Positions 31,211 to 63,690 of a stretch of 64,000 bases of DNA are shown piece by piece. The position numbers were made by a program, and so were the translations under genes. This DNA is from Podospora anserina (lineage: Eukaryota). The notes beneath the pieces are model-generated. The model was not told the origin of the DNA and did no database searches. It saw only the letters and a program-made list of their open reading frames with translations. Positions within the stretch are counted from its first letter, which is position 1; each line of letters opens with the position of its first letter. The DNA is taken from positions 2,418,001-2,482,000 of the forward strand of contig CM030332.1 of the NCBI GenBank assembly GCA_017654855.1, written 5' to 3'.

Positions 31211-33595
31211 ATGCTCTCCAAGAAGCAGCGCCAGCGAGAGCTTGCCTGTGCTGAAGATATATCACTTCTCTCCATTCTGAGCCCTCCTTCATACTCTCTG
31301 CTGGTGAACAAGCCACCATTCCTAAAGTCCCAACCTGACTCTTCGCGAGTTTTGCCGTTCGAAACCGAAGTCAGTCTGGCAAGCACTTTGGCTTTCCTCT
31401 CTGGTATCTCCGACGACCCCAGCCATGTGGTGGCAGCCTCTGTGGAAGAGTTGGGAAATGGAAACGGGATATGTGTCAGAGTGGCCATCAACAAAGACCA
31501 TGCCGGCGGCGGAGATGATGTGTTGGAAAGGATCCAGGATGGGTTGCAAAGGGTGCTGAAGTGTCTAGCCCCCAAACACACAGACTCAGACGATCACACC
31601 CACGATCAGACTTTGACGGCGATACTGGATATGTCCCAACCACGGCTGCTATCTCGTCTCGGAGTTCAGCGGGCTGGAATAAAGAAGGCCGCAAAGGACA
31701 GGTCCTTTTTCGGTTCACCCATTCAGCAAATCATCAATGCTGTCAGCCAATACAAATACACCAAGAAGGTGGAGGCAGAAGCTCGCAGATTTATTAAACT
31801 GGCTGGGGAGCTACTCACTCACCTCGAACAGCTCAAGACTTGCAAAGTAGTAGCTCTAACAGCCTGTTTCAAACGGGTCACTTACACGTCGTCCCAGCTT
31901 ATAGCAAGCATCAAGTTTGACAAGCTATTCTCAGCACTGAATATCGACCCATTGATGAAAACTGGGTTTGTCACTCGACTTGGAAAGATTGCCCGGTACT
32001 ACGAGAGTTCGCACTTTCTAGTCCAGCTGGCGAAGAGGAGCATACTTTTTGACCACACGGAGGTCACAACGATCAAATTAAACGAGGAAGCATTTTTGAG
32101 AGTTCCAAACTCTGAGACCATTCATCGACTATCAGAATGCCTCTCACGTTGCCATCCCGGCGCTCCATTGCCTCTCAATATCAACAAAATCTGCCAAAAG
32201 GTCAAGACGGACCCGACAACGGCCAACGCAGTGTTTGGGAAGGCAACCAGGAAGATACTGGCTGAGTCAAAGGTCCATGCGGAAGTGCAGATAGTGGCCT
32301 ACTATGGGCTTCATCCAGTGGCGCGCAAGCCCCGGGTAATATGCTCAAACAAGGACGCATGCTATATGTGCAACTTGTTCATTCAAGTTCACGGGATGTA
32401 CTATGTGCCCAAGAGCCATGGAAGATTGTATACTGGCTGGAGGGTCCCGCCTATATCTTCCCTCAACGACGCACATGCTCAGCTTGACAAAGCTTTGCAG
32501 AACAAGATCAGGGATGTTGTTCAGGAGTTCAAGGATTTTGGCGATCGAGAACGGGTATTGGATCTCAATCAGAATGAGAGCACCATCTTTCCATTCACGA
32601 CCCTTATGTCGTCGCTGGAAAGCATATCACTGCCCGTGGCAAAGCCTCCACAGGCCGGTCAGGTGCAGAAGCCTCCGCGACCACCCCAGAGACTACACGA
32701 GCCACCTCAGCGTCGATTACCCGAGCGACCACAATCAGAGCAACGACAGCCAGAGCAATCGCAAGAGCAACCACAAGAGCTATCGCCTGCAACTACACAA
32801 CTGTCCAAGCCTCACATAGTCAAAACAAGCACCCCGCGCATAGAACGTCGAGATGAGAGAATCACTGATCAACAGCCTACTATTGAACCAACTTCATCAA
32901 CCTCCAAGTCATCTTCAACACCTGTGTTCAGCCCAACACTTGTAGCGCCATCTCCAGAAGATCTTCCATCGCCTCCGAGACCAAAACCGCCAGTAAAACA
33001 AGACACGCCCATCCCCGTAAAAACCCTTCCAAAACCAACCCTCGCCAACCTCTCGCTCCTCGACCAACAATCTCCCGACCTATTGGAAAACCAAAAACCA
33101 ACACGACAAACGAGCCGAACTTCGTCAGAGCCAGCAGAGGTAACCCCTTCTCTGCCCACCAAAGCCCAAAACTCGCGAGGAAGCGAGGGTAAAAGGGTGG
33201 AGTCGTCTGAGCAAAAAGGAAAAGTCTTGCTCCAAAGGGGGAAAACCACTGGTATTTGGATGGACGAGGGGGTGCTGCCGCCTGTTTTTACGGCTGGGGG
33301 GCTGGATATCTTTTTGGAGAATGTGACTGAATGTAAAAGAGGGAGAAAAAGGGGAAGCACCGGGAAGGTGGTGAGGGTGGATTTAACTTGGTTGGGTGGG
33401 GAGGGTGAGAGAAGGCCAAGGATGAAGAGGGGGAGGAATTATCATTTCCTAGAGGGGCTGGAGAGGGGGATGGAGGTCGATGGGGGGAGCGGAGAGGTTG
33501 TGGTTTTGGAGGGGGGTGGGGAGGTGGTTGTTGTTGAGGTTGTTGGGGAGGGAAGGGGGAAGGGGGTGTCGGGGGGTAAGGCCGAATGGGCATGA
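31211..33595 (+). CDS. OTT_1508-like zinc-dependent nucleic-acid deaminase-domain protein
   Basis: 794 aa intronless ORF. 'E.SLASTLAFLS', 'KVHAEVQIV' (HxE), 'ICSNKDACYMCNLF' (CxxC), 'SHGRLYTGW'. P/Q/S-rich tail. Confidence 0.75.
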   Translation: MLSKKQRQRELACAEDISLLSILSPPSYSLLVNKPPFLKSQPDSSRVLPFETEVSLASTLAFLSGISDDPSHVVAASVEELGNGNGICVRVAINKDHAGGGDDVLERIQDGLQRVLKCLAPKHTDSDDHTHDQTLTAILDMSQPRLLSRLGVQRAGIKKAAKDRSFFGSPIQQIINAVSQYKYTKKVEAEARRFIKLAGELLTHLEQLKTCKVVALTACFKRVTYTSSQLIASIKFDKLFSALNIDPLMKTGFVTRLGKIARYYESSHFLVQLAKRSILFDHTEVTTIKLNEEAFLRVPNSETIHRLSECLSRCHPGAPLPLNINKICQKVKTDPTTANAVFGKATRKILAESKVHAEVQIVAYYGLHPVARKPRVICSNKDACYMCNLFIQVHGMYYVPKSHGRLYTGWRVPPISSLNDAHAQLDKALQNKIRDVVQEFKDFGDRERVLDLNQNESTIFPFTTLMSSLESISLPVAKPPQAGQVQKPPRPPQRLHEPPQRRLPERPQSEQRQPEQSQEQPQELSPATTQLSKPHIVKTSTPRIERRDERITDQQPTIEPTSSTSKSSSTPVFSPTLVAPSPEDLPSPPRPKPPVKQDTPIPVKTLPKPTLANLSLLDQQSPDLLENQKPTRQTSRTSSEPAEVTPSLPTKAQNSRGSEGKRVESSEQKGKVLLQRGKTTGIWMDEGVLPPVFTAGGLDIFLENVTECKRGRKRGSTGKVVRVDLTWLGGEGERRPRMKRGRNYHFLEGLERGMEVDGGSGEVVVLEGGGEVVVVEVVGEGRGKGVSGGKAEWA

Positions 33596-52278: not shown

Positions 52279-52377
52279 TGCAGACAGTGGGGTTCGAACC
52301 CACGCATCTCTCGATAATGGTGATAAAAGTTATATGTAACTTAAAACCATCGCCTTAGACCACTCGGCCATGTCTGC
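52279..52377 (-). tRNA. tRNA-Leu(UAA), intron-containing
   Basis: Reverse complement folds as GCAGACA-TG-GCCGAGTGGTCTAAGGC-G-ATGGT-TT-TAA-G-[about 17-nt intron TTACATATAACTTTTAT]-C-ACCAT-long variable arm-GTGGG-TTCGAAC-CCCAC-TGTCTGC-A. T-runs follow. Confidence 0.93.
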
Positions 52378-54409: not shown

Positions 54410-56149
54410 GTGAATGAGTTCAGGTCAACTAACAAGATCATAGACACCATCCTCTCAGCTTCCATACCAGCCCTCATTCTCGTCCATCTCATAATGGCTC
54501 CTTACACCAAAGTTGAGGAATCATTCAACATTCAAGCCACACACGATGTGCTTGTCTACGGAACCCCCAGTTCAAACATCCACAGCAGGCTGTCCCACAC
54601 CTACGATCACTTCACATTCCCTGGTGCTGTTCCACGAACCTTTGTCGGCTCAGTGTTGTTGGCCGGTATATCACAACCCATCATTCTCATTCTAGGCTTC
54701 CAGCATGCACAGATCATCATTCGTGCCTTGCTTGGTCTATTCAATGCCTTCAGCTTACACATCTTCACCCGCAACCTTCGCCAAGCCTACGGCCCTGCTG
54801 CAGCAAGATGGTATCTCCTCCTCCAAGCCAGCCAGTTCCACGTCTTATTCTATGCCTCACGCACTCTCCCGAATATGTTCGCCTTTGGCCTCACCACCCT
54901 GGCCAGTTCTTACCTGTTACCAAACCCCAAGAACATCAAATCGACACCCCGTCGCCAACGTCTAGCGATAACAATGTTCGTCTTCGCGGCAGTCATCTTC
55001 CGCTCTGAAGTTGCCCTGCTCCTTGCTACCAACCTCCTTTACCTCGTCTTGCTGCCTGCCATCTCCATCGAACAAATCATCTTCCCCTTTGCGGCATCGT
55101 TCGCCATTGCTTTGGCAAGCTCAGTCCCAATCGACAGCTATTTTTGGCAAAAGCCCATATGGCCGGAACTATGGGGCTTTTACTACAACGTCGTCGGGGG
55201 CAACTCCTCAAACTGGGGGACGTCACCATGGTATTACTACTTTGTCTCGGCTCTACCAAGACTACTCGTCAACCCACTTTCTTGCACAGTTCTCATCCCT
55301 TATTCGCTATATCACCCTGCCTTGGCGCCCGCAGCGAAGAAACTTGTCATTCCGTCATTACTCTTCGTCGCCATTTACTCGCTCCAGCCCCACAAAGAAG
55401 CGAGGTTCATCTTCTACGTCGTCCCCTCCCTCACAGCAGCCGCTGCCCTCGGCGCTGCTACTCTCTCCCGGAAATCGCAAGTCCTCACCCTTATTCTCTT
55501 CGCCTCAGTGCTCGCATCATTCGCCATCTCAACTGGGATGTTGCTCATCTCATCACTCAACTACCCCGGCGGCGAAGCCCTTTCGTACCTCGCCACCTCC
55601 CTGGCTGAATCACCATCCACCAGCTCAGGGGAGGTAGTCCCCATTCACGCAGATGTCCTCTCCTGCATGACGGGTGTCACCCTCTTCGGGTCTTCCTCCG
55701 CGGCGGGATCGGCGTTTCCAAAGCTGGAGCCGGATGGGGGGTTGATCTTTCATGAGAAGGGCAGCCGGGGTAAGGGGGTTGTTATCAAGGTTGATAAGAC
55801 GGAGGATGAAGGCGATCTAGTGCAGGAGGAGTTTTGGAGGGGGTTTAGGTATGTTTTGACGGAGGATCCTGACAAGGTGAAGGAGAGGAGTAAGGGGGTT
55901 GAGTGGGAGACTGTTGGGGTTGTGAGGGGGTTCGGGGGGGTGGAGGTGTTGAGGCCGGGTCAGGAGGGGCAAAGGGGGAATGTAGGAGAGGTGGTAGGGA
56001 AGGGGAGGGTGGTGGAGGCGGTGAGGGATAAGGTGAGAGGGTTGACGGGCGGTTGGTGGGTTGGGCCGGGGATGGTGGATAGGATTTGGATTTTGAGACG
56101 GGGGAGGGGTGGGAAGGCGGGGTGGAAGGTACGGGAGGAGAGTTCATAA
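54410..56149 (+). CDS. ALG12: Dol-P-Man alpha-1,6-mannosyltransferase Alg12 (GT22)
   Basis: 'APYTKVEESFNIQA.HD', 'YDHFTFPGAVPRTFVG', 'FYASRTLPN', 'FRSE', 'QPHKE.RFI.Y', 'SSLNYPGGEAL'. The true start is probably in a short upstream exon (about 54303-54350) spliced to the acceptor near 54442. Confidence 0.9.
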   Translation: MNEFRSTNKIIDTILSASIPALILVHLIMAPYTKVEESFNIQATHDVLVYGTPSSNIHSRLSHTYDHFTFPGAVPRTFVGSVLLAGISQPIILILGFQHAQIIIRALLGLFNAFSLHIFTRNLRQAYGPAAARWYLLLQASQFHVLFYASRTLPNMFAFGLTTLASSYLLPNPKNIKSTPRRQRLAITMFVFAAVIFRSEVALLLATNLLYLVLLPAISIEQIIFPFAASFAIALASSVPIDSYFWQKPIWPELWGFYYNVVGGNSSNWGTSPWYYYFVSALPRLLVNPLSCTVLIPYSLYHPALAPAAKKLVIPSLLFVAIYSLQPHKEARFIFYVVPSLTAAAALGAATLSRKSQVLTLILFASVLASFAISTGMLLISSLNYPGGEALSYLATSLAESPSTSSGEVVPIHADVLSCMTGVTLFGSSSAAGSAFPKLEPDGGLIFHEKGSRGKGVVIKVDKTEDEGDLVQEEFWRGFRYVLTEDPDKVKERSKGVEWETVGVVRGFGGVEVLRPGQEGQRGNVGEVVGKGRVVEAVRDKVRGLTGGWWVGPGMVDRIWILRRGRGGKAGWKVREESS

Positions 56150-56465
56150 GTTAGGGGGTGTATGTTGTCTGATAAATGATGGTTTCGTCTATCAAAGGTA
56201 CTCGAATACAAGACGTCTGTTTTTTAACTTTTGCTGGCCCCTAACCAGCAGTACCAGCCCTCGAAAGAGGCGCTATTTACTTCGCCGACAACAAGTAATT
56301 GAAGTCAAGGTTATTACACCAAGTCCCCGGCTGCTCTGACTCTCTTTCCGACGCGGCTTTGAGTTTGTACGCGTTGGCTTCAAGCTAAGCAAGCCACTAG
56401 ATTACCTTGTTCCTGCTTGGGGCTGTGCAGCTGGCTTATAAGGTTCGATTTCAGACTGGGCTTTT

Positions 56466-56531
56466 GGCGAAGTAGTGGACTCAATGAAGCTCGTTGGATG
56501 AACTCACCTTGCCCATGTATGGGCCTTCGCT
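56466..56531 (+). ncRNA. Putative terminal-stem small RNA, unit 1 (66 nt, degenerate)
   Basis: GGCGAAG-TAGT ... hairpin GCCCA/TGGGC (56511-56524) - CTTCGCT, then TCTAATTTT. Confidence 0.45.
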
Positions 56532-56979
56532 TCTAATTTTGTCGATCCTGAGGAGAGGATCTCCGAAGAGAACATTCCATATTTTTTTCCTTCATTCTCA
56601 CTCAACACTGAATTGGCCATGCCTGGATGCAGTGAAAGAGAAGAGAGGGTGTGACCTTTGTAGGCGGGTGGTGCAGTTAGAAGCCTGTAAGTCAAGCTGT
56701 GGAAGGCATATGTTCAATCCTGCGGAATGGGAAAAGAATGTTCTTTTTGCATCTTTTTGAAACAGATATCATCTGTGATATAGGAACTCGAGAAAGAGGC
56801 CCATGCTAATCAAAAAAGCTTGACTGGGGAAATAATAGCCAAACAACTCGGCCTTTGATAGATCAACTTCGAGATGTGACACGTGATTAGTTTTGACAGC
56901 TGTGACCAGGCCCGATGGGGCTACTTTAACTTTTGGCAGGCTAGAGGGTATATAAGATCCTTTTCCGAGAGTTTCTTTC

Positions 56980-57080
56980 AGCGAAGTAGCTGGTATTACA
57001 ACTTCGAGCTCACCACTCGACCCAGCAAACCGGCCCTGGCAACAGAGCCACCCACGCACTTGGATAATTGTGCCTTCGCT
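56980..57080 (+). ncRNA. Putative terminal-stem small RNA, unit 2 (101 nt)
   Basis: AGCGAAG-TAGCTGG ... GCAC/GTGC hairpin (57056-57073) - CTTCGCT-TTT. Upstream GGGTATATAA-N6-TTTCCG-N11. Confidence 0.6.
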
Positions 57081-57441
57081 TTTGCATTTTTCATCACGAC
57101 ATCCCCAAAGGTCTCTCGGACTGCACGGCATGGGTGGGGGCGAGGCAGTTAAGGGGTTGGATAGCTAGTACTTTTCTGTAACTTTGGCGTGAATGGCTGC
57201 GTGGCAGGCAATACCTAAATCGGGAGCAATTTGAACGTTGTGCTTTCGAATCCAGGAGCGGCGGCCTTGCGGATCGCCTCAGCCCGAACCTCGTACAGAC
57301 CTACAGAGCCGATTCTCCAGGGCCCCTTTTTCCATATTTTTGGCATGTGCAGAAGATGGGAGACAGGTGCGAAGGGCTGCTTAAAACTGCCTTACGTCTA
57401 TCTGGCTTGGATAATTGACACATAGTTTCAGGAAAGTTGTC

Positions 57442-57664
57442 AGCGAAGTAAGGTAGCTAATTCACTTGATTATTTGACAATTAACTTTCTTGCCCGGATA
57501 TGGGTCTGCTCTTTTATTTTTGGAGACATATATGACTTCCCTTTTCTTCCAGTTTTGGATTATCCAAACACCGTCAATGCACTCGTTTGTTCGGGAAGAT
57601 GTCTGTCGGTAATATTGGCTGGTAGGTGGTGTAAGCTCCTGCGCATCCGAACTTCACTCTCGCT
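57442..57664 (+). ncRNA. Putative terminal-stem small RNA, unit 3 (long/degenerate, about 223 nt)
   Basis: AGCGAAG-TAAGGTAGC. The best 3' partner is CTCGCTTTT at 57659, preceded by a GTTCGG/CCGAAC stem. Confidence 0.35.
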
Positions 57665-58004
57665 TTTGCTTCCTAGCTTACCTCTAACCCTCTCTTTTTT
57701 TGCCCTCTTGCACAACGTGGAGAGTGGAGACCGGGAACAGCACACCTCACCACAACCATCTTCATGTAAACAAGATGTCCAGTGCATACATCTGTATTTG
57801 AAGCAAACTTTCGAAACGGCTCGAGTTCAAATGTCTCTTTTTGCCTGTTTTCTCTTTTTTCATTGGCTGTGAATCCCAAACCTTTGGAGCACAAGAGCCG
57901 CTAGGGAATCCGTCCTCATTTTCACAGGAGGGACACTTACTGCACCACCACAACAGGCTGCAATTGAGTCGGCTATATCATCTTATTTTCTGTTGAGGCT
58001 AAAC

Positions 58005-58127
58005 AGCGAAGTAGCTGGTATCAAATTGAGTATATCATACTGCAACATATATATCCTCGGATCACCACTGAGGGCTTCGGTTCTCGCCAGACATCTACCT
58101 GTTTGCAAGTAGATGATCTCCTTCGCT
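58005..58127 (+). ncRNA. Putative terminal-stem small RNA, unit 4 (123 nt)
   Basis: AGCGAAG-TAGCTGG ... AGACATCTAC/GTAGATGATCT hairpin (58089-58119) - C-CTTCGCT-TTT. Confidence 0.6.
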
Positions 58128-58340
58128 TTTGCCATGGCAACCGAGCCAAGGGGAGAACTTCGCATCTTTTTGGATGTCAACTCTCATCGTCCTGCGTCTT
58201 TTCCCTTTTTTGTCCTTTGAGGTTGCGTGGGAGGGCTAACATGAGGAGAGAGATGTCCTCAATTTCATACCAAGACCCCACCACCACCACCACCACTTGG
58301 GGACTTTGGGCTATGAACTTTGTTTCCGTCAGAGGCTTTC

Positions 58341-58432
58341 AGCGAAGTAGCGTCCAAATACTATCATTCGAGTTTTCGAACAATCTGTGAGGTCTGGGGG
58401 TTCAAGAATACCTCGAGGTATTCGCCTTCGCT
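58341..58432 (+). ncRNA. Putative terminal-stem small RNA, unit 5 (92 nt)
   Basis: AGCGAAG-TAGC ... GAATACC-TCGA-GGTATTC (58406-58423) - GC-CTTCGCT-TTTATTTT. Confidence 0.6.
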
Positions 58433-58749
58433 TTTATTTTGTCTTGCCCACAAATCCAGAGGCTGGCCACCTCAAGGGCTAGCAGGGGCAGTAATCGATA
58501 CTTAGATCAAAACACTATTTTTGACCTCTTAACGCAAGTGGATGTGTGCATACTTTATTTTGAAACGTCGTGTGTTCGAATCTCTGTCTTCTCAGTTGCA
58601 TTTTTCTTCTTGTCCAGGGTGTGACCAAGTAATCGTTTTTAGTGTTGAAAGATGTCCTCAATCTGTGCCGAGACCAACAGCTATTTACACCACCTACCTA
58701 GGCACACACCAGCACTAGGGATATCATCAGTGTTTCCGACACAATCATC

Positions 58750-58866
58750 AGCGAAGTAGCCTAAACATGCCATCTTATGATGAGTACTTGATTGCAACGG
58801 ATAACCACTGGGCCAGGTCACGGTCACTCTTAGACATCTACTTGTAGATATTCTAGGTCCTTCGCT
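58750..58866 (+). ncRNA. Putative terminal-stem small RNA, unit 6 (117 nt)
   Basis: AGCGAAG-TAGC ... TAGACATCTAC/GTAGATATTCTA hairpin (58831-58855) ... CTTCGCT-TTTT. Confidence 0.6.
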
Positions 58867-59142
58867 TTTTCGCAGTGTGCTCTCATTGTCGCTAGTGGCG
58901 AATGCTCGCAACTTTCCACTGCTTTTTAGCAACATATTTCCAGGCACCCTAACGCAGATGTCTGTATGCAAACTTGAAAATAAGACGTCCTGCGTTCGAG
59001 TCTTTCTTTTGCTTCTGCATTGTCTTTTGTGTGTTTAGGGGGGAAGATGTCCTCACTTTCTGCCAAGACCCCGCCACTTACACCCACTGGAAGAGCTATA
59101 TAGTGACCTAGGGATATCATCTTTGTTTCCGGAAGAGATATC

Positions 59143-59255
59143 AGCGAAGTAGCTGGAATAAACCACCTTTGGATGATCTACCATTATATCTACGGATAAC
59201 ACTGCGGGCCTGGGGGCATTAAAGGGACGTCTACGAGTAGACGTTCTCCTTTGCT
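59143..59255 (+). ncRNA. Putative terminal-stem small RNA, unit 7 (113 nt)
   Basis: AGCGAAG-TAGCTGG ... GGGACGTCTA-CGAG-TAGACGTTCT (59224-59247) - C-CTTTGCT (G-U wobble keeps pairing) - TTTT. Confidence 0.6.
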
Positions 59256-59559
59256 TTTTGCTTTGGGCTGAGATAACTCCCAGCAAGCCGGGATGACTAC
59301 TACTCTTGCCCTCACCCCTGGCTATGTAGGGATTCCGGTTAATTTAGCATACATGTATGCGTCTCGGTGAGAATATAAGACGTCTCTGTTCGAATGTCTG
59401 TTGCTGCGATTGTTTTTTCTTTTTTCCATACTAGAACTGCTTTTGGGGCTAAGAAAAGATGTCCTCAATCCTCGGTCTGGCTAGGTAGCCAAGGCCTGTG
59501 GAGTCTGAGAGCTGGGCAGGTAGGAAGGGATATCATCGACTTTTCCGGGCATGTCTTTC

Positions 59560-59644
59560 AGCGAAGTAGCTGGTATCAAACAAACTTATCAAGAACGTGA
59601 TGACAGTCTGGGTGGCTTAATGCCCCTAGGATGTCACCATCGCT
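59560..59644 (+). ncRNA. Putative terminal-stem small RNA, unit 8 (85 nt)
   Basis: AGCGAAG-TAGCTGG ... hairpin TGACA-GTCTGGG-TGGC/GCC-CCTAGGA-TGTCA (59601-59636) - C-CATCGCT-TTT. Confidence 0.6.
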
Positions 59645-59976
59645 TTTGCTTTTTATGTAGTTACTTTACAGGTAGACAGGATTACGCAAATCAGGGCTTC
59701 CGAGACGGACAGCTTCAAGTCAAACTTATCACAGAGGGTTCTTTTAAGTGGTTTAACCTAGTGGGCTGCGTCTGGATGTAAAGTTAGAGACGTTCTAGTT
59801 CGAGTGTGTCATGTTTCATCGATTTTCTCTTTTCATGATCAAGGTGTGCCTGGGGCGAACAAAAAGATGTCCTCAAGTCCACCTTTGGCTTAGCGGAGAT
59901 AAGGGGCATCAGATGGGTGGAAGTGAAGGGGGAAGAAGAAGAGGGTATATCACCTTGTTTTCTGAACTCAATTATC

Positions 59977-60073
59977 AGCGAAGTTAGCTGAATCCATACA
60001 TACCTTACCTGAAAAAGCGGCCTTGGGGGATTTTGACATCTTTAATGATGTGATTGCAGGTGTCACCTTCGCT
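59977..60073 (+). ncRNA. Putative terminal-stem small RNA, unit 9 (97 nt)
   Basis: AGCGAAG-TTAGCTG ... TGACATCT/AGGTGTCA stem (60034-60065) - C-CTTCGCT-TTCTTTTT. Confidence 0.6.
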
Positions 60074-60414
60074 TTCTTTTTCTTCTTGTCATCAGATGTT
60101 GGAAACAGGACAGGGAGTGGTCCCCCATCTTCCAGCAAGGCCATCTTGTGGACGAAGATTCAATACGAGGGTTGGCGCAAACATATGCATTTCCATCTAT
60201 TTTCAAGACGCCGTGAGTTCGAGTTTGCAATTTTCTTTTTTGATTCGCTATCATCAGATCTGGAGAAGGGTGTATGCGGTGGTGGAAAAAGCCGTCCTCA
60301 ATTCTTGGCTACCTGTAAAATCTTCTCGGACTGGACTAGCCTGGGGCTTTCACATGGAATATCGAGGGCGATAATATCTGCTTGAGATATGCAAATCTTC
60401 CATCATTATCCTCA

Positions 60415-61516
60415 CTACTCATTTTCCTCCTGTCCTCCTCGAATTCTGTGCGCTGCCACCCGCTCTTTGAGACTGCCTTTGAGAGCATCCCACAAACTGA
60501 ACACCAAGGTAACATGGCCTAAAATTAAGCAAACTGCCTGGTCAAGCTCATCAATTTTGTAAGAGCTTTTCGGAAAAGCCATAGATAGCCTGAGAGCCAA
60601 GCTTTGATTGCTCGACATGTACTTGGTTTCGGTCGCTCCGCCCAGAATAATGATGGCCACTTGGATGACGAGAAAGGGAATAGATATGACAGGCCATATA
60701 GCATCAAACCAACCCTTAACTGTGAGGGTTAATTTGGCTCTTGCAAGATCGAGCCGTTTTTGTATTGTGTGTAAGGGAATGCGTTCCTGCGTGGCATTTG
60801 ACGAGGCGTTGAACAAAATGTCGCACTGATGGGACGCAAGTGAAGTAATTTGACTCAAGACTGCCAGCGCAACAGCAACGATTAAAGTCGTCATAATACC
60901 GGTAATGACCGGTGCGTCAAAGTTATGACAGAAGGGCCTCACCATGTTGCTCTCGTCGATTGGTACATTCCATCCGGTTTTGATTACTATGGCCTGTGGG
61001 CAATATTCAGCTCCTGTCTCAAGATTTCTCTCCTTACTCCAACGGAAAGAAAGAAGTTACTACACTTACCCACTCTGGCGACCAAGTAAAAGCAGTCACC
61101 ACCAGCACTATCAACGCCCTTTTCATCTGGCCCTTCCAAGTTGCCAACCCAAAAAGTGCGAGGCCGAAGCCAGAGAATGTCTCGCACACCGTCAATGGCG
61201 CTTCAAGGGCGGATGAAAATTGTTGAGAAGATATGTCGGAGCTTGTCAACAGAGTCTTGAGACTCGAGGTTGATGAAGATGGTGCTTGAAAGAAGATCAA
61301 ATTGTACACATGGCCAGCTGCCACCGCTGGGATGGTGAGTGCTATGATGAAGTCAGGCGAGATGGTGTTGGAGCGGGAGTATTTGGGGTTGAACGTCCAT
61401 GTAACAAAGAGGGAGAGGAGGATGCAGAGCCAGCCGCCCATGTTCCCTGGACCATAGAGGGAAGACACATTGCTGAATCTGTCGAGGGGGTGGTGGCTTT
61501 CACCGGAAACATTCAT
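60415..61516 (-). CDS. Hypothetical multi-pass membrane protein (2 exons), embedded antisense within the array
   Basis: ORFs 61034-61516 and 60415-60945 can be joined by an intron at about 60994-61069 (GTAAGT...GCTGAAT...CAG on the minus strand). Several hydrophobic segments; motifs 'SSLYGPGNMGGW' and 'IDELDQAVCL'. Confidence 0.65.
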
Positions 61517-61994
61517 TGTGCCCGGAAAACAATAAAGACCAAGACTTTTTCGCTTGTTGTCATAGGAGAATGGATTTAGTCAAATGCCTGTCAATGTATG
61601 GAACTCCCACATCCTCGTTAGCCAATAGCCATATCACGATATACAACAGGTAACTTCACCTATTTTCACTGTGCCTCACTCGAGATGATGCTACAGCTTT
61701 GAACCGGGGCAGTGCCTCGAAGAAGGTTGCATCGAGCGGGAAATCGGCGTTGGCCAGACTCTGAAGCCCGACATGCCTTGCGGCTGGCTCCAGGTACCAA
61801 ACATGCATTGGCAGATGGGAAACATGGCCGTGTCTGAGTCTCGTCGTTCGATTATGAGAACTTTGTTTCATGCTTGTTGCAAACCTAGGTAGGAGCCAAG
61901 AGATACACAAGATCTCAAAACTGCAATCAAGTGGTTTGGCACGTGAGTGGCGTTCTCTCTAGCCTTATCAACTACTTTTCCGACCTTCAATGTC

Positions 61995-62054
61995 AGCGAA
62001 GTAGCGAACTACATTCTCAGACGACTTGAAATTGTATCTTCGGATACCTTCGCT
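61995..62054 (+). ncRNA. Putative terminal-stem small RNA, unit 10 (60 nt)
   Basis: AGCGAAG-TAGC ... GTATC-TTCG-GATAC (cUUCGg tetraloop, 62034-62047) directly abutting CTTCGCT-TTTTTTT. Confidence 0.65.
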
Positions 62055-62451
62055 TTTTTTTGCACTTTCCAGACATATCCAAGCTCAATATCAACATGCC
62101 CCCTTCTTTTTGACATCCCTATCGCGCTCTCGTGGACAGAACAAGCCCAAGCAACCGCCATTTCTCTTTTTACTGGGTCGCTGACATGGTTGGACGTGTC
62201 TCACCTCAAACTAGAGACGTCAGAGTTCGAATCAGACATGTCCCCAACTTCATGTCTTTTTCACAATCTCTCTTTTGCAGTCTGCAACTTTCACAAGATG
62301 ATATAAGACTGCAGTTAATGTGGTGTCATTGCTAAAATGCCTTAACCAACTTTATTCTTACCTAAGTGCTCTTTCTCTCTTGTTCACATGTCAGCACGTG
62401 CCGCCAGCCTGTGTCTGGGGTATACAGCCTCCCTTTCCACACCTTACCTCC

Positions 62452-62515
62452 AGCGACGTAGCGGAAAATTAAATAGGAATTTACCCTGTCCCCCTTCGGG
62501 GGAAACACCTTCGCT
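62452..62515 (+). ncRNA. Putative terminal-stem small RNA, unit 11 (64 nt)
   Basis: AGCGACG-TAGC ... TGT-C-CCCC-TTCG-GGGG-AA-ACA (cUUCGg, core 62491-62502) - C-CTTCGCT-TTT. Confidence 0.6.
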
Positions 62516-63690
62516 TTTGTTCACTTTTTTTTAGAAGATCAACAAACAGATCTTCTCACCTCACGATCTTCAACACCTAACTACGCCAGCAAAGCTAGCA
62601 GAGGCCACGCTGGGGCACCTCAACCCCTGGTCTCTGAGGACAGGTGTTGTGGCGCAGACAGCTGGATGCCAGCACAATGAAAATGTTTTTGAGCTTGGAC
62701 GTCGCTGTTCGAATTCAATGACTTGATTATCTTTGCATGCTTTTGTTGAGTCAAGTTCGCTTTTAATGAATGCTTGAATGCACTGGGAGTTGATGTGTAT
62801 TTTCTTGCGAGCGACAGAGGGTTGTTTTCTTCAGCGGTATGTACATATGATTGATCAACTGGCATGTTATTTGTAAGCTGGGTTTGCTTATCACATATTT
62901 GATAATGGAAATCTTTATTTCCCTTGGAGCGGGGGAGATGTTGGGTAGAGCTGTCATACAGGAGATTGTGATGAACTTGTCGTGATGTCGACTGTGGAGT
63001 AATCTGTCAGTGACTGCTGGCTGGGTTATCCCCGGTGTAAGATGCTTAACTCCGGGGCTGGGTCTTGGCAGCTCTGATGGTGCTGGTTTGGAGTTGGCTT
63101 TATTGATCTTGAAGAGTCTGTAAAACCAAAAGGCTTGGTTTATAGAATGTTGTTTTTTTTGGTAACTTTTCGTTTCACCTCGCGAAGGCCATCATATTTA
63201 AGAGCAATATGTGTGTTGTGAATTGATTACAGTAAAAGTCCAGTTGTTCAGGGGTAAGGCAAGCTTTCATTGCTCCATGACATCATCAGCCGTGTTGTTC
63301 CTGAATGGCAGGCTCAACATCAGATTGGTGATCGGAGCATTTGGGAAGACATCCGCATCTTGCACGTGATGACTTTTCAACTTCTAGCGAGAAGAGACTC
63401 TTTCTTCACTGTAATATTTGATCTCTTTTACACACTTATAACACCGGACAAACATCGCTCTTATGCATCTACCAACCAGAAAAAGAACATACCGAGTTCC
63501 CAGCGCAGCCTCTCCTGACCCGCCTCCCTCCTTCTTGCAACCTCCTTCATACCCTCCTTAATGACACAGCAAGGCAGTATCAGCAGTATCAGCAGTATCA
63601 ACTTCTCCGAAGACTTCCAAATTCGATATTCCTGAATGTCTACACCTTACTCTTAATACCTACCCCCTACCTTCACCCCGTCTCTCAACA

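Follow-up and report, generated by a model that had tools for sequence, protein, structure and literature searches.

A tandem array of predicted polymerase III-type small RNA genes in Podospora anserina

What kind of genetic element keeps its two ends constant while nearly everything between them changes? This question is raised by eleven short units that lie on the + strand between positions 56466 and 62515 of a 64,000-nucleotide (nt) stretch of the Podospora anserina genome (assembly GCA_017654855.1, contig CM030332.1, positions 2,418,001 to 2,482,000 of the forward strand), which is hereafter called the window and provides the numbering used below. Each unit is 60-123 nt long, begins with AGCGAAG or a one-letter variant of it, and ends with the complementary CTTCGCT, while the interiors are largely without sequence kinship, with the exception of units 4, 6, and 7. 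The exact motif AGCGAAGTAGC occurs seven times in the 64-kb window and CCTTCGCTTTT six times, in every case inside the array, and the pattern in which both motifs are joined by a gap of 72-102 nt yielded three matches in the window versus none in 100 shuffles. The observed sequence anatomy, fold statistics, spacing constraint, relatives, and covariation point to the array as a tandem family of polymerase III-type small non-coding RNA genes in this fungus, a reading that we consider probable.

The two ends of a unit pair into a terminal stem, which is a perfect Watson-Crick helix of 7 base pairs (bp) in six of the eleven units (2, 4, 5, 6, 9, and 10). A single G-U pair replaces a Watson-Crick pair in units 1 and 7, and units 8 and 11 each have one mismatch, deviations that had already been described in an initial annotation of this DNA. 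The 3′ strand of the stem is degenerate in unit 3, a decay absent from that annotation, and the unit is probably a pseudogene. The unconstrained minimum-energy fold contains the terminal stem in eight of the eleven units (z from -3.48 to +1.01), and, when the stem is enforced, the remaining RNA is not unusually stable overall (mean z -0.69). For the 32 nt that precede the closing strand, the fold energy averages -7.97 kcal/mol; genomic 32-mers reach -4.11 (Mann-Whitney p 6.5e-4) and array spacers -3.74 (p 2e-4). Against shuffles of the interior, the tail energy gives p<=0.013 in five of the eleven units (p 0.003 in unit 7) and a Fisher's combined p of 2e-6. The earlier claim that a constant terminal stem is accompanied by a stable 3′ hairpin whose sequence varies is upheld. 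The first 32 nt past the 5′ strand show the opposite, with a mean of -2.3 kcal/mol and a GC content of 0.37.

All of the 3′ hairpins listed in the initial annotation are present, and their stems are short (3-10 uninterrupted pairs). Loops of the cUUCGg type were found in three units (4, 10, and 11) rather than in the two first counted, and CTTCGG occurs three times in the 987 nt of the units versus 17 times in the + strand of the whole window. A helix lies within 2 nt of the closing strand in ten of the eleven units, as previously pointed out, but shuffles already lead to an expectation of 6.9 of eleven, and a test based on uninterrupted stacks returned a combined p of merely 0.034; the abutting helix of the window units is thus present, a weak signal that does not exceed chance by itself. 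Compensatory change within the window consists of a single swap in the hairpin, from A-U in units 4 and 6 to G-C in unit 7, which is real, with an additional C-A mismatch there in unit 6. The + strand is taken as the sense strand, in agreement with the initial annotation, on the evidence of T-runs, TATA boxes upstream, G-U pairs, and UUCG loops. Four or five units also contain a G-rich box that reads CTGGGGG, or differs from it at one letter, and precedes their 3′ end by 37-52 nt, the sites listed for units 5, 7, 8, and 9 being 58394-58400, 59210-59216, 59608-59614, and 59023+; it represents either residual homology or an additional RNA element.

Conserved blocks are not confined to the RNA. 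When whole periods of 336-563 bp were aligned, a module of about 400 bp emerged, in which blocks beyond the RNA occupy fixed positions and of which the initial annotation had covered only a part (Table 1). A TATA-like heptamer stands at -31/-30 in seven of the eleven units, three more show weaker matches, rich in A/T, at the corresponding alignment columns, and TTTCCG (with at most one mismatch) is found at -18 to -16 in all eleven. Directly after the 5′ strand of the stem, TAGC occupies RNA positions 8-11 in eight units, and unit 9 has a 1-nt insertion at this place. A run of 4-8 T begins at the last base of the stem in eight units, and at least four T follow within 6 nt in the other three. 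Further downstream, eight units have the B-box-like GTTCGA, at +222 to +256 counted from position 8, and a distal motif, GATGTCCTCAA, follows 52-77 bp past it.

The spacing between the A-box-like and B-box-like sites is constrained. The longer the RNA (60-117 nt), the shorter the spacer that separates it from the B box (127-191 nt; r -0.86, p 0.0065), and because of this the A-to-B distance stays at 236 +/- 11 bp, compared with a scatter of about 30 bp expected (permutation p 0.005). Each B-box-like site was assigned to the preceding unit, since units 9 and 11, which end their parts of the array, retain one, and units 5 and 10 have none upstream. No consensus fold was found for the stretch around the B-box-like sites, which is why this region is read as a DNA element; a second RNA gene at this place was rejected on the same ground and in view of internal T4-T5 runs in several copies. 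Each B-box-like site is preceded, at a distance of about 55 nt (e.g., 60174-60183 and 62657-62666), by an A-box-like T/GGCGCA with a small CGTCT/AGACG inverted repeat, and together with the B box and the T-run this arrangement looks like the relic of a tRNA gene. To the left of unit 1, a TCGAAT...AGACGTC...T6 stretch lies at 56201-56225, and GGTTCGATTTC is located at 56442-56452, in the interval that separates unit 1 from its TATA-like box; these elements may be relics of another module or extra B-box-like sites.

Table 1. Coordinates of the array units, the elements around them, and other genes of the window
Feature	Position	Strand	Length	Description
Unit 1	56466..56531	+	66 nt	GGCGAAG...CTTCGCT, one G-U; GCCCA/TGGGC hairpin adjoining closing strand; first T4 6 nt past stem
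Unit 2	56980..57080	+	101 nt	perfect stem; z -3.48, 0/200 shuffles as stable; T4 then T5
Unit 3	57442..57510	+		5′ motif present, 3′ strand decayed; z +1.01
Unit 4	58005..58127	+	123 nt	perfect stem; internal cUUCGg hairpin and long 3′ hairpin; no downstream B-box-like site
Unit 5	58341..58432	+	92 nt	3′ hairpin GAATACC/GGTATTC; tail energy p 0.013
Unit 6	58750..58866	+	117 nt	part of interior homologous to units 4 and 7
Unit 7	59143..59255	+	113 nt	closing strand CTTTGCT (G-U); 10-bp 3′ hairpin with A-U to G-C swap
Unit 8	59560..59644	+	85 nt	one stem mismatch; tail energy p 0.01
Unit 9	59977..60073	+	97 nt	TTAGC after stem; tail energy p 0.01; T3 then T5
Unit 10	61995..62054	+	60 nt	GTATC-TTCG-GATAC hairpin adjoining closing strand; T8 run
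Unit 11	62452..62515	+	64 nt	AGCGACG (one mismatch); CCCCC-TTCG-GGGG hairpin 5-6 nt before closing strand
Upstream block, unit 1	56435..56453	+		weak TATA-like CTTATAAGG, T-stretch; TTTCAG at -17
Upstream block, unit 2	56949..56967	+		TATATAA at -31, TTTCCG at -18
Upstream block, unit 3	57411..57429	+		no TATA-like match; TTTCAG at -16
Upstream block, unit 4	57974..57992	+		TATATCA at -31, TTTCTG at -18
Upstream block, unit 5	58310..58328	+		weak GCTATGAAC, TTTCCG at -18
Upstream block, unit 6	58719..58737	+		GATATCA at -30, TTTCCG at -17
Upstream block, unit 7	59112..59130	+		GATATCA at -30, TTTCCG at -17
Upstream block, unit 8	59529..59547	+		GATATCA at -31, TTTCCG at -18
Upstream block, unit 9	59946..59964	+		TATATCA at -31, TTTCTG at -18
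Upstream block, unit 10	61964..61982	+		weak CTTATCAAC, TTTCCG at -18
Upstream block, unit 11	62421..62439	+		TATACAG at -31, TTTCCA at -18
B-box-like site, unit 2	57243..57251	+		CTTTCGAAT, +256 from unit position 8
B-box-like site, unit 5	58573..58581	+		TGTTCGAAT, +225
B-box-like site, unit 6	58993..59001	+		CGTTCGAGT, +236
B-box-like site, unit 7	59387..59395	+		TGTTCGAAT, +237
B-box-like site, unit 8	59797..59805	+		AGTTCGAGT, +230
B-box-like site, unit 9	60216..60224	+		AGTTCGAGT, +232; retained without following unit
B-box-like site, unit 10	62224..62232	+		AGTTCGAAT, +222
B-box-like site, unit 11	62706..62714	+		TGTTCGAAT, +247; retained without following unit
Distal motif, module 4	58252..58262	+		GATGTCCTCAA
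Distal motif, module 5	58651..58661	+		GATGTCCTCAA
Distal motif, module 6	59046..59056	+		GATGTCCTCAC
Distal motif, module 7	59458..59468	+		GATGTCCTCAA
Distal motif, module 8	59866..59876	+		GATGTCCTCAA
Distal motif, module 9	60291..60301	+		GCCGTCCTCAA
Spliced gene	60277-61867	-		inside array between units 9 and 10
tRNA gene, intron-bearing	52279-52377	-		Rfam 52.2 bits

Genes of the same type were also identified outside Podospora. Metagenome contigs were scanned with both motifs and the 72-102 nt gap, which returned six loci (L001-L006). Four of these, L003-L006, lie on fungal-like contigs and contain eight units, which reduce to four distinct genes, given that L003 is nearly identical to L004 and L005 to L006. 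L003 and L004 have three copies each within about 2 kb of AT/CT-rich non-coding DNA, and L004 also has an open reading frame (ORF) for a DUF3818 PX protein. All eight units also have features that the search did not impose: a TATA stands at -31 to -29, the stem is followed by TAGCT, and downstream come a T4 run and, 6-15 nt from the stem, the B-box-like TCGATTC. No synteny or other similarity was found between the window and L001-L006. In L005, a truncated 5′ motif (AGCGAAGCTAAC, 990-1001, - strand) is located about 32 nt past the unit, beyond the B-box-like site, and is directly followed by T5.

The relatives possess a helix of 6-7 bp adjoining the closing strand, with a gap of 0 nt in six of the eight, and its strands read GGTGTAG/CTACACC, GGTGCAG/CTGCACC, or GGTGGT/ACCACC. 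In the covariation alignment, which begins at this abutting helix, two of the seven pairs are changed on both sides (UA/CG/GC and AU/UA), 95.9% of the cells are paired, none of 500 shuffles reaches the covariation score, and the slid controls yielded none that did. Compensatory change, as invoked in the initial annotation, is better supported by these relatives than by the window, which holds only the one swap.

The remaining matches to the pattern, L001 and L002, as well as L007 and L008, were rejected as chance, being bacterial DNA without TATA box, B box, or clustering. In prokaryote genomes, the same pattern gave two single matches in 596 billion bases, one of them homologous to L001. L001 (1151-1258, - strand) and L008 (696-803, - strand) are on homologous bacterial contigs, one of which is labelled Bryobacteraceae, and share a conserved 105-nt stretch just past a stop codon that has the same two motifs at its ends by chance; this stretch may be a bacterial structured element, and it is no kin of the fungal family.

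According to the reading of the array as polymerase III genes, every module would possess a split promoter, consisting of the TATA-like box at -31/-30, the T-stretch, the A-box-like TAGC at positions 8-11, the T-run, and GTTCGA about 236 bp from the A-box site. TFIIIC would bridge the A-box-like and the B-box-like sites and set TFIIIB on the TATA box; then, polymerase III would initiate at or beside the A of AGCGAAG and terminate in the T-run. In the section of PMC5356446 that deals with the A-box rule, transcription starts 10-12 nt upstream of the box, and application of this rule would therefore place the start a few bases before that A. The predicted product is an RNA of 60-125 nt, whose 5′ end would be paired in the fixed-sequence 7-bp stem, with a 3′ oligo-U overhang, a stable 3′ hairpin extending the stem, and a 5′ segment that is A/U-rich, poorly structured, and fast-evolving. 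The polymerase, the RNA ends, and all of the function are what we infer from this anatomy. The combination of stem and 3′ overhang recalls the mini-helix substrates of export treated in a part of PMC4726728. By analogy only, common proteins (a La-type protein, a stem binder) might grip the RNA by its fixed stem and U-tail, which might perhaps also serve in export, and each paralogue might owe an individual partner to its variable, single-stranded 5′ segment.

A more far-reaching version of this idea, in which the units would encode guide-like RNAs made of a constant handle (7-bp stem, 3′ hairpin, and U-tail) and a diversifying single-stranded 5′ segment of 25-50 nt, seems distinctly unlikely to us. 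If it were true, a single fungal protein, common to all paralogues, would be steered by each of them to another nucleic-acid target, and the array would encode a polymerase III-driven targeting system apart from small nucleolar RNAs (snoRNAs) and RNA interference. Antisense targets of the variable parts were sought within the window, where 12-13-mers occurred at chance level only.

Transcript data provide a limited view of the locus. Twenty public runs cover the stretch in whole or in part, none of them labelled as RNA; X15-X20 are presumed to be RNA, and the contigs of X15, X16, X18, and X20 were examined, which permit no reading of strand or RNA ends and neither support nor exclude small RNAs. 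Contigs of low depth lie over units 2, 4, 5, and 11, no cover was seen over 58517-60245 (units 6-9), and some contigs stop 8-20 nt past the T-runs of units 4 and 5, an observation made without a comparison with DNA runs.

Several observations weigh against the array being a set of polymerase III genes. In the presumed-RNA contigs, the T-runs of unit 2 (X16, X18, and X20) and of unit 11 (X15 and X16) are bridged, and some transcripts therefore cross these sites, on a strand that cannot be read. No RNA of the predicted size, RNA end, or polymerase occupancy was seen in the data examined. Fold energies on the + strand are no better than on its complement. The terminal stem is invariant and thus shows no covariation, its deviations amounting to two G-U pairs, two mismatches, and one decayed strand, and the terminal motifs of the relatives are conserved by construction since the search pattern fixed them. 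The covariation seen in the relatives comes from three independent sequence types only. Units 1, 3, and 4 have no B-box-like site at the expected place, the A-box match comprises only four letters, and T4 is a short terminator.

Among the other explanations, the one that survives best is, as the initial annotation had suggested, that the RNA mimics the acceptor/T-arm half of a transfer RNA (tRNA); the tRNA enzymes RNase P, RNase Z, and the CCA-adding enzyme, or else tRNA export or elongation factors, would then act on it. The 7-bp stem followed by U-A-G-C, as at tRNA positions 8-11, is indeed found in eight of the eleven units and in all eight relatives, a U-rich 3′ trailer follows, and a helix meets the 3′ strand of the stem with a gap of 0-2 nt in ten of the eleven units and of 0 nt in six of the eight relatives; for the window units, however, the shuffles mentioned above account for most of this abutment. 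No match to the Rfam tRNA model (RF00005) was obtained at E<=10 in 55800-63200 or at E<=5 in L003-L006, and ARAGORN found no tRNA in the array, although the same run also missed the intron-bearing tRNA gene of the window (Table 1). In that gene, the A box is at positions 8-18 and reads TGGC at positions 8-11, where the units have TAGC, the B box is GGTTCGAACC, and the first downstream T-run is T4. The folds contain no 7-nt T-loop, the 3′ hairpins having tetraloops or long irregular loops instead, and no D-arm-like helix is consistent across the predicted folds. The B box also lies outside the RNA, GTTCGA being 127-191 nt beyond it in the window units and the B-box-like site 6-15 nt beyond the stem in the relatives, and a start at the A of AGCGAAG, if it is used, would leave no 5′ leader for RNase P. 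We thus consider RNA mimicry unlikely; the tRNA link of the initial annotation, which stands as far as TAGC at positions 8-11 and the downstream GTTCGA are concerned, is best read as residing in the promoter architecture (TATA, A box, terminator, and extragenic B box).

Another explanation places the function in the DNA, the array being a row of sites for TFIIIC, TFIIIB, and polymerase III that acts as a chromatin boundary or genome organiser, with the RNA as a by-product. It would agree with the fact that the best-conserved parts are promoter-like motifs with fixed spacing, between which the interiors evolve freely, and that a polymerase II gene (60277-61867) lies within the array, with units on either side. 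The complementary closing strand, the stable 3′ hairpin, and the covarying helix of the relatives, however, are no promoter parts and therefore point to selection on RNA, which makes a function in the DNA alone very unlikely.

The units could also be decaying, functionless repeats, relics of a duplicated tRNA-derived or short interspersed nuclear element (SINE)-like element. The decayed unit 3, the lack of a B-box-like site in units 1, 3, and 4, the unrelated interiors, and the GCGCA before each B box, which resembles a tRNA-gene relic, all fit this picture. It is nevertheless highly improbable, since the short motifs and their spacing are kept while the intervening sequence is saturated, the same gene type occurs on fungal-like contigs otherwise dissimilar to the window, and no signature of repeat-induced point mutation (RIP) accounts for a fast decay, the RIP indices being ordinary (TpA/ApT 0.70-0.78, (CpA+TpG)/(ApC+GpT) 1.30-1.31). 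The duplicated unit includes the upstream promoter and therefore did not arise by retroposition. A SINE or a miniature inverted-repeat transposable element (MITE) was rejected as a candidate, the interiors being dissimilar except in units 4, 6, and 7 and the repeat unit including the upstream TATA block and the downstream motifs; box C/D and H/ACA snoRNAs, the hammerhead, and again the MITE were rejected because inspection by eye and Rfam, the only means applied, showed no defining motifs in register.

Least probable of all are microRNA-like precursors made by polymerase III, with a small RNA released from the 3′ hairpin by the T-run, as in the milR genes of Neurospora, for which TATA-like elements and a T cluster after the small RNA are described in the part of PMC3547838 consulted: the array hairpins do stand directly before the T-run, but their stems have only 3-10 uninterrupted pairs, and it is the terminal stem, not a hairpin arm, that is conserved across units and lineages.

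The array also encloses and adjoins other transcribed DNA. The spliced gene between units 9 and 10 has introns at 60993-61068 and 61587-61658, whose joints are present in contigs of three to four runs, and its two large exons are without a Pfam match. At 62238-63200, presumed-RNA contigs cover unit 11 and continue rightward, and a joint skips 62859-62959, with CT..AC ends, pointing to a spliced transcript from the minus strand, in antisense orientation to unit 11. A 794-aa ORF at 31211-33595 (+ strand) contains an OTT_1508-like deaminase domain (Pfam E 1e-18).

Taken together, the pairing and the hairpins of the initial annotation are confirmed as observations, and its interpretation is partly supported. 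With Rfam 15, the array matched no model either at gathering scores or with the threshold relaxed to E<=10, and the relatives matched none at E<=5, which excludes the models of tRNA, U6, Y RNA, vault RNA, 5S, and snoRNA. In the literature, a search of 8.4 million papers with sequence strings found an unrelated primer only (supplementary files were outside its scope), and a keyword search found no description of such an RNA family (supplementary small-RNA lists were outside its scope). To our knowledge, polymerase III products in filamentous fungi are few, namely tRNA, 5S, U6, the RNase P/MRP and signal recognition particle RNAs, and some microRNA-like RNA precursors. The units are best read as small RNAs of a new family whose genes follow a known polymerase III design, and, if expressed, they would constitute a new polymerase III small-RNA family in filamentous fungi.

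Compared with known systems, the units share with tRNA genes the 7-bp terminal stem, T-purine-G-C at positions 8-11, the GTTCGA B box, and the T-run terminator, but they are without cloverleaf, T-loop, and anticodon arm, and their B box is outside the transcript. The closest likeness in layout that we describe is to the U6 gene of budding yeast, in which, according to the passages drawn from PMC5356446, PMC5855946, and PMC1796607, a TATA box is followed by a T-stretch, the A block is within the gene, the B block lies about 120 nt beyond the terminator, and the A-B spacing of about 200 bp is important in vivo. As far as those passages describe it, SNR6 of Saccharomyces cerevisiae thus has the same upstream TATA and T-stretch, A block, T-run, and B block past the terminator, and the same long, constrained A-B spacing (about 200 bp in yeast versus 236 +/- 11 bp here). 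Unlike SNR6, the array consists of eleven diverged tandem paralogues, its RNA is not U6 (no RF00026 match at E<=10), its A-box-like site shares the position of that in tRNA genes (+8), and the B box of the metagenome relatives is merely 6-15 nt past the stem. The terminal stem presumably resembles the 5′ stem-loop of budding-yeast U6 as well, a likeness that was given no weight. Such a split promoter (TATA, A box, and B box past the terminator) would be a reusable design and not the oddity of a single yeast gene; eleven paralogues with compensating RNA and spacer lengths bear on why A-B spacing matters, and promoters of this kind could serve guide-RNA expression in fungi.

The milR genes of Neurospora crassa likewise belong to a filamentous fungus and, in the excerpt of PMC3547838 used here, contain TATA-like elements that polymerase III requires, with a T cluster immediately following the small RNA. 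The array differs from them in having no long Dicer-type hairpin and in having a conserved terminal stem, a tandem arrangement, and a downstream B box. With Y RNAs and nematode stem-bulge RNAs, as portrayed in part of PMC4726728, the units share a length of about 100 nt, synthesis by polymerase III (inferred for the array), several genes per genome, ends that pair into a conserved stem, an oligo-U tail, and a variable interior. The Ro60 site is depicted in the same portion of that source (PMC4726728) as a 7-bp helix in which a C is bulged out and the opposite strand has a bulge of 3 nt. In contrast, the array helix is perfect over 7 bp in six of the eleven units and has no bulge in any unit, and Rfam gave no Y RNA match on the array. 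Vault RNAs are small polymerase III RNAs as well, which are encoded in clusters of tandem paralogues and have conserved paired ends and a variable centre, and the A and B boxes of their genes are both inside the RNA. The array differs in its extragenic B box and has no match to the vault RNA model (RF00006) at E<=10. The parallel with Y, stem-bulge, and vault RNAs in combining a fixed stem with a variable interior suggests a novel fungal RNA-protein particle.

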